This document shows positions 58,866 to 64,000 of a stretch of 64,000 nucleotides of DNA, one piece after another. Position 1 is the stretch's first letter; every line of letters starts with the position of its first letter. Both the position numbers and the translations under genes were made by a program. The DNA is from Alphaproteobacteria bacterium. Lineage in GTDB: Bacteria > Pseudomonadota > Alphaproteobacteria > UBA828. The notes beneath the pieces were generated by a model. That model worked only from the letters and a program-made list of their open reading frames with translations, did not search any database and had not been told where the DNA came from. The stretch lies in contig CAXXVO010000015.1 in NCBI GenBank assembly GCA_963422645.2, positions 128,001 to 192,000 on the forward strand. The letters are read 5' to 3'.

Positions 58866-60100
58866 TGCATGAGTGCCGCGCTCGCCTTGGTCGCCCGACC
58901 GTGGCTGAACTCCCGGTTCTCGTATGTCGGTGGTGCCGAACGCGACCGGAACAATGTCGGCATCGTGGTCTCCGGCAGCGAGCGGGTCGTACACGCAGCC
59001 AATCCGTGGGACGCGCTCGGTTATCAGGCGGTCGAGGATGCCGTGGCGGCATTTGACAGATACGCTTTCGGCGAAGGCGCTCAACTGCTTCGGGACGCCT
59101 TGAAGAGGATTTCGGATGACGGATCCCGCAAGAGCGAACTTAACGCTCTTGCCACGTTCATGGATGCTTACGATCTCTGGAGTCGGTCGGAGTACGGGAA
59201 GGCTTTTGAGAAATTTGAGCAGTGCGAAAAGCGCCTGAATGATCTGGCGGCCGCCCTCCACCCGAACCCCAGGAATCGACTGAAAGATCACATCAATGAG
59301 GCAAGAACCCGCTTGGAAGGCCTGAAGCGAGGTTTCGACCATCCGACGCGGGCATTGCTTGAAGACCTGATCTCCGATGCCAAACGGCGTCAGCAGGAAG
59401 GCCGTCACGTAGATGCCTTGGCCCGGCTCTACCGCGCGGTCGAGGCGACGGCCCAACTGCGCTTGTGGGAAAAGTACGAGATCCGCACTTCCAGCGTACC
59501 ATTGGAAAAGCTGCCGCAACCCATGCGCGAACGCTTGAAAGCTCAAGCTGAAGACGGGACAGTGAAGCTTGCACTGCAGGCTTCCTTCGAGTTGTTACGA
59601 TGTTGGCAGGATCCTTTGGGTGAACGCTTCGCAGAACTGGGCTGGCATGGTCGTGGTTCGCCGCTGATCCGGCGCAACGAGTCGATCGCGGGGCACGGTT
59701 TTGCACCCGTATCGCCGGAAACATCCGTCCAGCTGTGGGAAGGAGCGCTGTCGCTGGCGGAATTGGCCGATAAAGACGTCTTCCGGTTTCCACAGCTTGG
59801 TCGATGAGCGCGCTTCGCAATCGGCCTTACCAAGGGGCGCCTGCTCGCCGTCGCCGAGACCATGCGCAATCTGGCCAGGAAACCGGGGCGGGTTCTCGGC
59901 TTCCCGAAAATTACCGACGATGTTGCCCCGCGGCCAGCACCCGGCTGACTGCCCCCTCCGAGCCGCGTCCATCGCCAACCCTCGGCACGCAGGGAGCGAG
60001 CCCTTATGCTCAGATGAGGCCGTGCTCGGCACTCGCGTCCAAGGGGGACCCTCTGGGGCGGCACGATGCCGGCTAAATCCAGCGCACAGCCGCTGCAAGG

Positions 60101-60502
60101 ATGCCTACCGACGATGAGTGGGCGTTGATCGAACCCCACATGCCCGAGGTGCAATCTCTGGGCCGGCCGCGGACGACGGACTTGCGGGAGGTGGTGAACG
60201 CCATCCTGTATGTCCTGCGCTCGGGCTGCCCCTGGCGGTTGATGCCCAAGGATTTTCCGCCGCGTTCGACGGCGCTATTTCGCCGCGTGGCGGGACGAGG
60301 GGCTGTGGGCTGGGATCAACCACGCCTTGCTGACAGCGGCGAGGGAGGCGGAGGGTCGTGAGGCCGCTCCGTCCGCCGGCGTCATCGACAGCCAGTCGGT
60401 GAAGAGCACGGAAAGCGGTGGTCCACGGGGCTTTGACGCTGGCAAGAAGGTGAAGGGCCGCAAGCGCCATATCGTACCGACACCGGCGGCCTGCTGCTCG
60501 CC
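60101..60502 (+). pseudogene. IS5-family (IS1031-like) transposase fragment, frameshifted and cut by IS21
   Basis: TDDEW, GRPR, NAILY..RSGC.WR..P.DFPP, IDSQSVK, KVKGRKRHI. Confidence 0.85.
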
Positions 60503-61310
60503 TGCAAGATCTGGCCGCATTTGACCGCAGTTCTGATTTTATCTGACCGCCATTCTGATTTTATTTGACCGAAGTTCTGGCGACATCTGACCGCGATTCC
60601 GGCGGCACTTGACCGTCGGAGGTCGGGTCCGAGGCCCGGCCTGATCACCCTGCGGGCGCCACCCACATCCATGTTCCCGGGCGCGCCGATCCTCTCCCGG
60701 CTCAGCCTCATCGATTCATCGATCGACTCGAGGAGGCAGGGCCCCAATGAAGAGGATCGACACCATGAGCATCAGGGACATCCTTCGGCACCATCACGAC
60801 CTGGGCTTGCCCCGGGCGGAGATCGCGGTGGCCGTGAGCGTGAGCGCGGGGACGGTATCGAACGTTCTGGAGCGCGCACAGGCGGCGGGTCTGTCATGGC
60901 CATTGCCGTCCGATCTCGACGATGACGGGCTGCGCGCGCGCCTGTATCCGCCGGCGCCGCGAGAGAGCGGGTATGCGCAGCCGGACTGGGATGGTGTGCT
61001 CCGTGAGCTTCGAGCCAGGCGGAAGCGGCGCCGGGTGCACGCGACGCGCCGCACGCTTTGGGAGGCGTACCGCGACGAGACCAGGGCCCGGGGTGGGAAG
61101 GCGTACAGCTATAGCCAGTTCTGCGCGCGCCTGAAGGCGCACCAGGGCAGCTGCGGCGGCTCGGCGCAGATGCACTTCGACTGCGAGCCCGGGCTGTACG
61201 GGATGGCGGACTTCTCCGGCAAGACGCTGGCCCTTCGCACCGGGCGCGGCGAGACCGACGTGGAGATCTTCGTCGCGGTCCTTGCGCATTTGAACCTTCC
61301 GTAATGGGGC

Positions 61311-61741
61311 AGTTGATGTCAAACACAGATATTCACGATCTTCCGGCTTGGCACGGTCTCTTGAACATGAAGAACCATCGCCTGCGGCCGATCGTCGTCC
61401 CAGGCATGGTCAACATAGGTGGTTACCTTGGCAAAAGCTGCTAACTGACTCGCCCGGCGCGGCACAGAGAAGGAACTACGATCCCGGATGTGTCCGCCGC
61501 CAGGCTCTCGCTTCCGTCCGTGGTCGGCGCAGCGGCCGCCAACGTCATGCCTGGTCCAAGACGATTCCCGAGTGCCGATCTGATCTACGTGCTCGACCGC
61601 AACAGGGCGGTTCGGCGAACAGGGTTCAAAACGCGCATCTTCGGGAACCGCGTCCCGGCGAGGGGACACCGGTGGATCGCCACCTTCAGGCGCGACTCTT
61701 TCCTCCTCTCCTAATTGACTGTCGGTGGGATGCAGCCGCGC
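61311..61741 (-). ncRNA. Candidate bridge/seek RNA region
   Basis: Non-coding region 3' of the recombinase containing matches to both halves of the insertion site (61580-61589 and 61623-61630); RNA boundaries unknown. Confidence 0.7.
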
Positions 61742-62785
61742 CTATGCCGTCTGCAGCGCCATCGCCTCCTCGCGCGTAAACCGGAACCCGGCGCCGTCCC
61801 GCCACATCCGATGGAGCACCACGCCGATGCGCCGGGCCAAGGCAACCGTTGCACGCTTCTTGCCCCGGAGCTTCGTCAGACGCTGCGCCCAGGCCTTCAA
61901 CCAGTTCGGGCCGGTGGTGCGGTTCAGCATCACCGTGGCAGCCTGATAGAGCGCCGAGCGCAGACCTGCGTCGCCACACTTCGTGATGGCGCCGACGATA
62001 TCTCGCTCGCCGGATTGGGCCCGTCCCGGCGTCAGCCCCACCCAGGGGCCGACATCCTTCGATCTTCGGAAGCGCCCGGGATCGTCGATCGCGGACATGA
62101 AGGTCAGCGCTATGACGTGGCCGACGCCGGGCATGGTCATGAGCAGCCGGCACACCGGATCTTCCCTGGCCAGATTACGGACCAGCTTCTCCAGGCCGGC
62201 CAGCTCGCGGCGCAGAGCCGCCCGCGCGCGCAAGATCGGTTCGGCCGCGGCTTCCAGCATCGCGTTGCCGGCGATCAATTCCCGGACGCGGGCCTCGTAG
62301 CGGCCCTTGGAGACCTGGCCCAGCTTCAGGCCGAAGTTGCGCAACACGCCGCGCAGTGACAGCTCCATATTGGTGAGCGCGTTCAGCACCGACTTGCGCG
62401 AGGTCAGCAGCGCGCGCATCTCCTGCGATGACACCGACTTGCAGTGCACCGGCCGGAACCAGCCCATCTGCAGCAGCCGTGCGATGCCCTCCGCATCCCG
62501 GCGATCCGTCTTGATCGGCATCGCCTTCAGCGCGGCCTTCACCCGCCGGGTCTCCATCAGCACGGCCTCGAAGCCGGCGCCGGTCAGACCCTTGTGCAAC
62601 CAGTGGGACAAGGGACCGGCCTCAAGACCGATCGCGGCGATCTCGTGCTCCAGCTTGCCCATGAACGCAACGAGTGCTTCAGGCGTGCTGGCTACCTGCG
62701 CCTCGGTAACGATCTTCCCCTTCTCGCCGATGACGCAGATTGACGTGCTTGCCAGCGATACATCCAGCCCGATATAGACGTTCAT
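61742..62785 (-). CDS. IS110/IS1111 DEDD recombinase
   Basis: YIGLDVS, GLEAG, KTDRRDA, MPGVG, GLTP...QSG. Confidence 0.95.
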   Translation of the reverse strand: MNVYIGLDVSLASTSICVIGEKGKIVTEAQVASTPEALVAFMGKLEHEIAAIGLEAGPLSHWLHKGLTGAGFEAVLMETRRVKAALKAMPIKTDRRDAEGIARLLQMGWFRPVHCKSVSSQEMRALLTSRKSVLNALTNMELSLRGVLRNFGLKLGQVSKGRYEARVRELIAGNAMLEAAAEPILRARAALRRELAGLEKLVRNLAREDPVCRLLMTMPGVGHVIALTFMSAIDDPGRFRRSKDVGPWVGLTPGRAQSGERDIVGAITKCGDAGLRSALYQAATVMLNRTTGPNWLKAWAQRLTKLRGKKRATVALARRIGVVLHRMWRDGAGFRFTREEAMALQTA

Positions 62786-63986
62786 GTCGTTGCCCTTTCC
62801 TTCGAGGAATTGGGGCGCGCCTTGCGGCAAGACCCCGTGAACACGCTGAGCGTGTAAGGGCAACGACACCCGATTCGCTACCATCGCGACAGGCTTCAAC
62901 GGTGCCGATTGGTGCCGAGCCCCATTACGGCATCTGATCTGATCTGATCTACGCCGAGGCGGTCCCCGACCAGACGGTGCGCCACTGGACGATGGCCCAC
63001 CGGCGCGCGCTCGGGTACTTCGGCGGCACCCCCCGCCGGTGGATCATCGACAACCTCAGGTCAGGCGTGGACGATCCCGACCGCGACGATATCCGGCTCA
63101 ATCCGAGCTTCCGGGAGTTCGCGCTCCATTACGGGATCGCAGTGCTGCCTGCGCGCAAGTACCGGGCCACCGACAAGGGGCTGGTCGAGAGCTGCGTCAA
63201 GGCCGTCCAGACGCGCCTCCTGCTGGCGCTGCGCCACCAGACCTTCTTCTCCCTCGACACCATGAACGCGGCCATCCGCCGCGAGCTCGATCGCCTCAAC
63301 GATGCCCCCATGGCCAAGTGCGGCGAGAGCCGCCGCGCGCTCTTCGAGGCGAACGAGCGGACGGCCCTGGCCGCGCTGCCGGCTCACGCCCGGGAGTGGG
63401 GAGAGTGGGTCGAGCGCAAGGTCGGGCCGAACTGTCACGTCCGCTTCGAGCGAAACCACTACTCCGCGCCGGAGCGCTACATCGGCCGCCAGGTCGACGT
63501 CCGCGCCGGCGAACGCATGGTCGAGGTGTTCCTCGAACGCGGCGGCGAGCGCATCGCCGTTCACCGCCGCAAGGCCGGGCGCAACCAGTACGCCACCACC
63601 CCCGAGCACATGCCGGAGAACCACCGGGCGGTCTGCGATATCCGCCGCCCCGATTACGGCGACATCCTGCTCGGCCAGGCGCGCCGTATCGGAGCCAATG
63701 CCCTGGCCTGGGCCGAGCGGTGCTACGCCTCGCGCGACTTCCCCGAGCAGGCCTTCGCCACCGTGCAGGGCATGATCCGCCTCGCCGACGATCATGGCGG
63801 CGATCGCCTCGACGCGCTCTGCGCCGAGGCCCTCGACCTCAACCGCCTCGCGTCTGGCTTCCTCAGGGAGAGGATCAAGAACGGCGGCGAGCCCGGTCGG
63901 CCGCGCCCCGAGCACGACGAGACCATCCCCAGCCACGGCAACATCCGCGGTGGCGACTACTACGGCAACAACGGAGGAGCGACACC

Positions 63987-64000
63987 ATGACCCTGCGACA
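63987..64000 (+). CDS. istB: Start of probable IstB (truncated by window)
   Basis: GGAGG RBS and ATGA overlap with the istA stop. Confidence 0.55.

Follow-up and report, generated by a model that had tools for sequence, protein, structure and literature searches.

An IS1111-group insertion sequence within an IS21 istA gene and the guide segments read in its non-coding region

The interrupted istA gene and the inserted element

The window analysed here is a stretch of 64,000 nucleotides from an Alphaproteobacteria bacterium (contig CAXXVO010000015.1, positions 128,001 to 192,000), and close to its end it carries the istA transposase gene of an IS21 insertion sequence, split in two by another mobile element that is called e1 in the following. 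An initial annotation of this DNA had proposed that e1 is an IS1111-type element whose non-coding RNA is programmed to hit the IS21 gene. The sequences on both sides of e1 belong to one istA gene, each side matching one half of the NCBIfam IS21 model (Table 1); the model's cut-off is 160, and either half alone falls below it. The insertion point lies within the integrase-core region, and the insertion is predicted to inactivate istA.

The transposase of e1 matches the Pfam families PF01548 (DEDD_Tnp_IS110, E 5.5e-16) and PF02371 (Transposase_20, E 4.7e-23) as well as the NCBIfam model NF033542, "IS110 family RNA-guided transposase", with 248 bits against a cut-off of 140 and over positions 1-341 of the 343 in the profile. 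The IS1111 group is described in PMC11187229 as having transposases of 330-350 aa with the motif GL-P----S(t)G; the 348-aa protein of e1 lies within this range, and its translation contains GLTPGRAQSG, which fits the motif. Its 12-bp subterminal inverted repeats are within the 7-17 bp expected of the group and are kept in relatives, and the non-coding region downstream of the transposase gene (444 nt, 61298-61741) is longer than that upstream (about 155 nt, 62789-62943), which is another mark of the group. By the criteria given in PMC11187229 and PMC11208160, the sequence of e1 places it in the IS1111 group of the IS110 family. Because the CT core is shared, the boundaries of e1 can slide by 2. 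There is no target duplication beyond this core: all that empty sites of a sister element, e2, have in common with occupied ones is CT, and the flanks of an e1 copy on another contig (C8) read in frame across a single AG/CT. Three copies of e1 at 100% identity are present in the genome.

Deletion of 61296-62943 in silico leaves ...GCGCATTTGAAC-CT-GATCTACG, and the initial annotation had read this as the restored istA gene. Fifteen IS21 loci from same-genus genomes bear on that reading; five lie in the other orientation and were left unread, and the ten with an anchor comprise the window's own occupied locus (L043) and nine uninterrupted copies. These nine read GCGCA(T/C)T(C)(G/C)(A/G)AC-CT-GA(T/C)CTACG, with one CTGAT unit and no insertion, and run through as ...GCGCATTCGAAC-CT-GATCTACGCCGAGG... 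(AHSNLIYAEA) or near variants. The codon stretch AH[S/L]NLIYAEA is kept in all nine and TCGAACCTGATCTACG is present in six; the right half-site is identical in 8/9, and the left half-site is 1-2 letters off the guide described below. At position 61291 the window has T (TTG, Leu); of the nine copies, the closest six have C there (TCG, Ser) and the other three read TCC. This T completes a perfect match of the left half-site to the e1 guide.

In contigs assembled from three public runs (X1, X2 and X4), 61295 runs straight on to 62944; the skip is 1648 bases long, with 2 ambiguous letters. The restored site proposed by the initial annotation is thus borne out both by these contigs and by the nine uninterrupted copies. 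In X4 the contig with the joint is 1938 nt long and represents a diverged IS21 copy. The joints in X1 and X2 stand on short contigs, with a depth of 3.4 against about 9.5-10 in the flank (X1) and of 27.4 against 54-58 (X2), and occupied and empty forms of istA seem to coexist in these two runs, through excision or through an allele not yet hit. In a further run, X6, a 652-nt contig spans the left junction with 0 differences, while 62444-62747 is without coverage in that run.

Target guides, their covariation with the flanks, and the second loop

The strings on which the initial annotation had built its proposal are all found where it placed them: TTTGAACC at 61289-61296, CTGATCTACG at both 61580-61589 and 62944-62953, and GGTTCAAA at 61623-61630. 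A repeat search independently recovered the right-hand match as a 13-nt direct repeat (61577-61589 and 62941-62953, 100%). In RNA of the minus strand, the left segment, UUUGAAC-CC, has the same sense as the plus-strand left target TTTGAAC-CT and would base-pair to that target's bottom strand, and the right segment, UAGAUC-AG, is complementary to the plus-strand right target CT-GATCTA. The two segments thus address opposite target strands from opposite sides of one loop and overlap at the core.

Chance is an unlikely origin of these matches. In 200000 shuffles of the 444-nt non-coding region, a left match of at least 8 nt abutting the junction arose 1401 times, a right match of at least 10 nt arose 97 times, and both matches of at least 7 nt in opposite senses arose together 123 times. 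Within the 5.9-Mb genome, moreover, only the restored istA site comes within 0-1 mismatch of the 15-mer; elsewhere there are 0 such sites, 2 with two mismatches and 34 with three.

The relatives help to delimit the guides. The initial annotation had counted a 10-nt match on the right, and while all eight guide letters (8/8) fit the native site, its last three letters (ACG) fall largely where relatives conserve GCG and are probably scaffold rather than guide, which would put the programmable part of the right guide at about CT+5. In the left guide, a Pseudosulfitobacter plasmid relative has CC at the core in an ungapped reading, as e1 does, and in a Leisingera relative a one-base shift suits the flank better and gives CA; judged by these sequences, the second core position of the left guide seems not to be strictly paired.

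The sister element e2 is 85% identical to e1 and present in 6 copies in the same genome, and the non-coding regions of the two are near-identical save for two blocks, which read CT-GATCTA in e1 vs CT-CCACAG in e2, and GG-GTTCAAA in e1 vs AG-TGGGCCC in e2. Copies of e2 are flanked by GGGGCCCA-CT and, at the opposite side, by CT-CCAAT, and empty e2 sites (GGGGCCCACTCCAAT...) occur elsewhere in the genome; reverse-complemented, the e2 block AGTGGGCCC gives the left flank of e2 with the core, GGGCCCA-CT, over 9/9 letters. Of 44 genomes of the family that were searched, 7 contain the non-coding region, all of them in the window's genus; the comparison also takes in four plasmid relatives with about 70% identity. 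In all relatives the scaffold is kept and the two guide blocks differ, and across 14 related elements both blocks vary along with each element's own flanks. This extends to a single letter: two elements of genome G034 differ by one guide letter, and the flank changes accordingly.

Guide-flank agreement was scored at 24 loci, three of which had no detectable end, leaving 21 cognate rows, to which about ten differently guided lineages contribute; 376 non-cognate pairs set a guide block against the flanks of a differently guided element. The mean left match was 7.33/9 for cognate and 4.49/9 for non-cognate pairs, and the mean right match was 5.95/7 and 3.53/7. Left matches of at least 8 were found in 13/21 cognate rows and 2/376 non-cognate pairs, and right matches of at least 6 in 14/21 and 7/376. 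A summed match of at least 14 of 16, the covariation expected of guide and target, was found in 11/21 cognate rows and in 0/376 non-cognate pairs, these counts being descriptive and no test of independent events, as the scored rows are related copies, and the cognate figures being lowered by two flawed rows of the 21 (L017, mis-anchored, and L026, in which the left flank is a tandem junction).

Consensus folds were obtained with RNAalifold from 11 sequences (alignment A1) and from 14 sequences including the plasmid relatives (A2), and in both the two guide blocks form the unpaired sides of one internal loop. With this position and the covariation with the flanks, the initial annotation's reading of the two segments as a guide pair in a bridge or seekRNA of the IS1111 type holds. 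The structural case rests on the consensus fold together with the guide-flank covariation, and not on folding energy.

A second hairpin domain on the same strand is read here as a donor loop for the element's own ends, as its two sides contain GGCAU, complementary to one end of e1, and ACGGA-AG, of the same sense as the other end with the core. One position of GGCAU pairs as C:G in e1 and as U:A in the Pseudosulfitobacter plasmid relative, few events being involved. The third letter of AC[G/A/C]GAAG tracks the element end: it is G with G in e1 and the Leisingera relative, A with A in e2, its G034 sister and a Yoonia relative, and C with C in a Paracoccus relative, and in one plasmid relative a G stands opposite T as a wobble. 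The covariation thus amounts to three letter states at one position and two at another, with few independent events, fewer than for the target loop, and the assignment is qualified accordingly in Table 1.

Table 1. Coordinates of e1, its putative RNA features and the two parts of istA in the window
Feature	Positions	Strand	Remarks
Element e1	61296..62943	transposase on minus strand	IS110-family insertion sequence, IS1111 group by sequence criteria; 1648 bp as inserted here
Transposase gene	61742..62788	minus	348 aa, ATG at 62788; sole long gene of e1
Subterminal inverted repeat, RNA-end arm	61299..61310		CCGTAATGGGGC; 12 nt, 100% complementary to 62919-62930
Subterminal inverted repeat, transposase-start arm	62919..62930		GCCCCATTACGG; 12 nt, partner of 61299-61310
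Core dinucleotide CT, left junction	61296..61297		Window plus sense; common to occupied and empty sites of e1, likewise for e2
Core CT, usual right end	62933..62934		...ACGGCAT-CT, as in other e1 copies and all relatives
Ten extra bases	62935..62944		Two extra GATCT units; found neither at the native IS21 site nor in other e1 copies or any relative
Target loop, 5' side (left target guide)	61622..61630	minus	RNA UUUGAAC-CC; 8/9 match to flank; hypervariable in A1 and A2
Target loop, 3' side (right target guide)	61580..61587	minus	RNA UAGAUC-AG; 8/8 match to native istA site; hypervariable
Outer stem closing target loop, 5' strand	61632..61652	minus	RNAalifold, A1 and A2
Outer stem closing target loop, 3' strand	61560..61579	minus	RNAalifold, A1 and A2
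Inner hairpin of target loop	61588..61621	minus	Two-sided changes in plasmid relatives at A2 columns 50/68 and 51/67
Putative donor loop, 5' side	61547..61551	minus	RNA GGCAU, complementary to ATGCC of the transposase-proximal element end
Putative donor loop, 3' side	61511..61517	minus	RNA ACGGA-AG, same sense as RNA-proximal end plus core (plus strand CT-TCCGT, 61296-61302)
Putative donor-loop hairpin	61518..61543	minus	A2 pair 127/140: AU in 8 sequences, GC in 6
IS21 istA, N-terminal part	60747..61295	plus	NF033546 profile 1-146, 63.3 bits; 91-97% identical to uninterrupted same-genus copies
IS21 istA, C-terminal part	62944..63990	plus	NF033546 profile 150-294, 147.2 bits; Pfam Mu-transpos_C_2, and rve (below its cut-off)

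The right junction, other copies and the places of relatives

The right junction of the window copy departs from the native prediction, reading ...ACGGCAT-CT-GATCT-GATCT-GATCTACG where ...ACGGCAT-CT-GATCTACG would be expected. The extent that the initial annotation had assigned to e1 agrees with the 1648-bp skip in the public runs and, at the same time, folds these ten extra bases into the element. Size differences among the relatives (1658 vs 1637 bp and 1657 vs 1647 bp) were considered as comparable junction extensions and rejected, being internal indels, and the extension is therefore unique to the window copy. The right half-site, CT-GAT-CT, holds CT twice, five bases apart, and a slip of register by 5 nt may have added a GATCT unit to the e1 end in each cycle of excision and reinsertion, giving the 10 extra bases; replication slippage on ATCTG-ATCTA is a possible and plainer alternative.

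On contig C8 (G000:C8:627084-630309; L002, L003), two e1 copies stand head to tail, the downstream one without about 60 nt of its transposase-proximal end. A large repeat-protein gene is interrupted in frame by this pair, the site in element sense being GGAGTTC-AG-GTTCCTC. The two copies join at AG (GGA-AG followed by CGAATC), unlike the guide-defined target, and the pair may be a rearranged tandem or a circle-junction product.

Two further observations concern e1 itself. The leader of its transposase gene contains a perfect 13-bp inverted repeat (62785-62797 and 62856-62868), which would fold into a hairpin covering AAGGG as well as the ATG at 62788 and may block the ribosome-binding site. 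On the minus strand, TTGACA stands at 61317-61322, about 20 nt from the RNA-proximal end, and TTGAC(A) is kept in e1 and in 4/4 plasmid relatives; by analogy with ISEc11 as described in PMC11187229, it could be a -35 box whose promoter is complete only in a circle junction.

Several relatives lie in other mobile elements. All e2 flanks that were read (four left, six right) fall within an IS3-family element's terminal inverted repeats, the element being identified by the Pfam domains HTH_21, rve and rve_3; at G000:C8:523874-528399 (L036, L038) and four more places, e2 stands at GGGGCCCA-CT-CCAAT(A/C)GGGGGTCA. One IS3 copy holds e2 in both of its ends, and in two e2 copies the RNA-proximal end is truncated or has been replaced. 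Relatives with other guide pairs are found in or beside mobile genes at loci L018, L024, L030, L020 and L035, in genomes G034, G043 and G037. The G043 relative splits an IS3 element of the same type close to where orfA begins, G034a interrupts an IS66 transposase between its LZ_Tnp_IS66 and DDE_Tnp_IS66 domains, a further G034 copy (L024) adjoins DDE_Tnp_1, and G034b is within a TrwC relaxase gene. Among the G037 copies, one is in a reverse-transcriptase gene, one in an AtzD-type gene and two at the start of an HU-like gene, one of these beside a phage integrase. Annotation of the longest frame per flank had given 3 matches in 27 frames and was widened to 81 frames; many flanks have no family match, in part because the loci extend over no more than about 325 nt on one side.

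Probable guided insertion, the origin of the match and likeness to known systems

Given the observed anatomy of e1, the covariation of guides and flanks, the uniqueness of the site and the presence of empty and occupied forms in public runs, e1 is very probably a recently active member of the IS1111 group whose bridge or seekRNA guided its insertion at the cognate IS21 site. The non-coding region downstream of its transposase gene would encode a minus-strand RNA with two internal loops, of which the donor loop, through GGCAU and ACGGA-AG, would recognise the element's own two ends. The DEDD recombinase and this RNA would then exchange strands at the shared CT core and place e1 at the one site in the genome that matches both guides, in istA. 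RNA production, binding of the recombinase and the chemistry of strand exchange are here inferred from published work on IS621 and ISEc11. A circle of e1 would have the abutted-end junction ...CCCCATTACGGA-AG-ATGCCGTAATGGGG... in element sense; among the run contigs listed, which are assembled contigs only, no such circle junction was found.

A number of results weigh against guided insertion at this site, beside the two limits on the scoring given above. High conservation of the stems leaves few compensatory pairs, 5/70 in A1 and 5/33 in A2. When e1 is folded alone, its stability does not exceed that of shuffled sequences (z -0.03), and five letters of one guide pair with five of the other; guides lying outside stems, the condition implied in the initial annotation, are seen in the consensus but not wholly in the single sequence. 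Rfam 15 gave no match to 61000-63200 at E up to 1, and a consensus scan for promoters and terminators in linear 61250-63000 found none. The left guide has CC against the core CT, which leaves one core letter mismatched. The 10 extra junction bases are unaccounted for by a simple model of insertion, and none of the run contigs listed bridges the right junction with its three GATCT units. Finally, the C8 site matches the guides only partly (left 4/7, right 4/6), as do the flanks of an e1 remnant on contig C5 and two left flanks, which are loose ends in runs; the expectation that flanks of other copies follow the guides is borne out across relatives, while other copies of e1 itself lie at partly matching sites outside IS21. 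The RNA runs (X17-X20), with 0.07-0.11 of the sampled words present, speak neither for nor against expression.

The absence of both an Rfam match and a fold-stability signal might lead one to think that the segments have no guide function, their similarity to the flanks being due to chance or to target DNA captured in a past recombination. This is extremely improbable: both matches of at least 7 nt were rare in the shuffles, flank-matching letters stand at the same two scaffold positions in at least ten differently targeted relatives, and no non-cognate pair reaches 14 of 16, so that the covariation comes close to refuting it. If guided insertion is accepted, the guides may still have no evolved relation to IS21, e1 having landed at the closest match, which by chance lay in istA. 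To this we give slightly better than even chances. Any RNA-guided insertion would be expected at the sole site with 0-1 mismatch in 5.9 Mb, and other insertions of e1 at half-matching sites elsewhere have a parallel in the half-match off-target insertion described for IS621 in a preprint (10.64898/2026.08.31.748434). Against it stands the perfect 15/15 site, which is expected about 0.01 times by chance (2 x 5.9e6 / 4^15); the guides and the site are therefore unlikely to be unrelated, and either the guide evolved on the istA site or e1 arrived with this type of IS21. The frequency of the clade in mobile elements likewise speaks against a purely accidental hit.

It is also compatible with guided insertion that e1 is an evolved hyperparasite, with guides selected for istA within a clade that keeps its guides aimed at mobile elements; as targets, these come in many copies, spread horizontally and can be lost at little cost to the host. 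The perfect match within a codon stretch kept in 9/9 uninterrupted copies, and the location of relatives in IS3 ends, IS66 and a relaxase gene, favour such selection, and the reported habit of IS4321 and IS5075 of striking Tn21 inverted repeats, for which PMC11208160 cites its reference 10, is a precedent. Yet there is just one e1 insertion in IS21, which is itself single-copy, blastn finding no second IS21 copy in the genome, and exact TTTGAAC occurs in 0/9 uninterrupted copies. An exact scan of species-representative genomes, which may exclude the window's own genome, gave 0 matches to the e1 guide pair, and blastn against a plasmid collection returned only e1 relatives of at most 74% identity. 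Other e1 copies are in a chromosomal repeat-protein gene, G037 copies lie in the AtzD-type gene and at the HU-like gene starts, and several flanks have no family match. Insertions in dispensable mobile DNA also survive better regardless of targeting, which biases the tally. Selection of the guides for istA is accordingly held to be rather improbable. The same applies to the stronger wording of the initial annotation, an RNA-guided parasite of IS21: insertion at the cognate site stands, but dedication to IS21 is doubtful because only one e1 insertion in IS21 is at hand. IS21 may be a target preferred through evolution, or simply the closest match at hand.

A broader form of this idea, in which target loops of the same-genus clade were rewritten again and again so as to hit working parts of other mobile elements, appears unlikely, and survival bias, with insertions in dispensable DNA persisting, could explain much of the pattern. 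If it were true, the targets would comprise the integrase core of istA, both terminal repeats and the orfA start of an IS3-family element, an IS66 transposase and a conjugative relaxase, and the pattern would amount to RNA-guided warfare, or a search for safe harbour, among mobile elements.

The mechanism as such is not new, a bridge or seekRNA with target and donor loops having been described for IS1111 elements in 2024. The e1 element resembles the IS1111 elements ISEc11, ISKpn4, ISPa11 and ISPst6 as described by Siddiquee et al. (2024; PMC11187229) in its DEDD transposase of about 340-350 aa with GL-P----SG, its subterminal inverted repeats and its long non-coding region downstream of the transposase gene with two short target matches, of which the element-sense top-strand match lies 5' of the bottom-strand match and the two overlap at the insertion point. 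As described there for ISEc11 and ISXne4, close relatives have been re-targeted naturally by a swap of blocks with the stems kept. Unlike the elements of that paper, e1 has guides of its own and a target in the istA codon stretch, and the extension from inverted repeat to flank is 5 bp (AGATG) in most e1-type copies, whereas 7 bp are called required in PMC11187229; the window copy has 10 further bases beyond the usual extension.

Likeness to the bridge RNA of IS621, as described by Durrant et al. (2024; PMC11208160; see also Hiraizumi et al. 2024, PMC11208158), extends to the two internal loops for target and donor, to the pairing of the 5' loop side with the bottom strand over 8-9 nt and of the 3' side with the top strand over 4-7 nt, and to the inclusion of the CT core in the guides. 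Unlike that of IS621 in the account of Durrant et al., the RNA of e1 lies at the other element end, its strand being opposite to the CT-oriented reading; further differences are the long inverted repeats and the CC at the core positions of the left guide.

Among listings and abstracts, no paper was found on an IS110-family element aimed at IS21 istA. Like IS4321 and IS5075, which reportedly target Tn21 inverted repeats, e1 is an IS1111-type element with a specific target inside another transposable element, and e2 does likewise to an IS3-family element, in both its ends. Unlike IS4321 and IS5075, e1 hits the transposase coding sequence of its victim and not the terminal repeats.

What e1 offers is a guide pair that can be read directly against its exact empty site. 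Its close relatives (80-85% identical), in which the scaffold is kept and the guides are swapped, provide material for learning the natural rules of reprogramming in the less-studied IS1111 group, namely the guide lengths, the core mismatch that is tolerated and the pairing in the donor loop. With istA, a transposase coding sequence joins the list of mobile-element targets of this group, a hint that IS1111-type elements may limit or exploit other insertion sequences.

The surroundings of the IS21 copy are a pile-up of insertion sequences. Directly upstream of it, at 60101-60361 on the plus strand, is a partial transposase of the IS4/IS5 type (DUF4096, E 5e-23). Just upstream of this cluster, a 312-aa open reading frame (58869-59807, plus strand) matches the Csm6 HEPN domain PF09670 with E 5e-27, with a weak Csm6_6H match besides, and by these matches it looks like a nuclease gene of the CRISPR-ancillary type.

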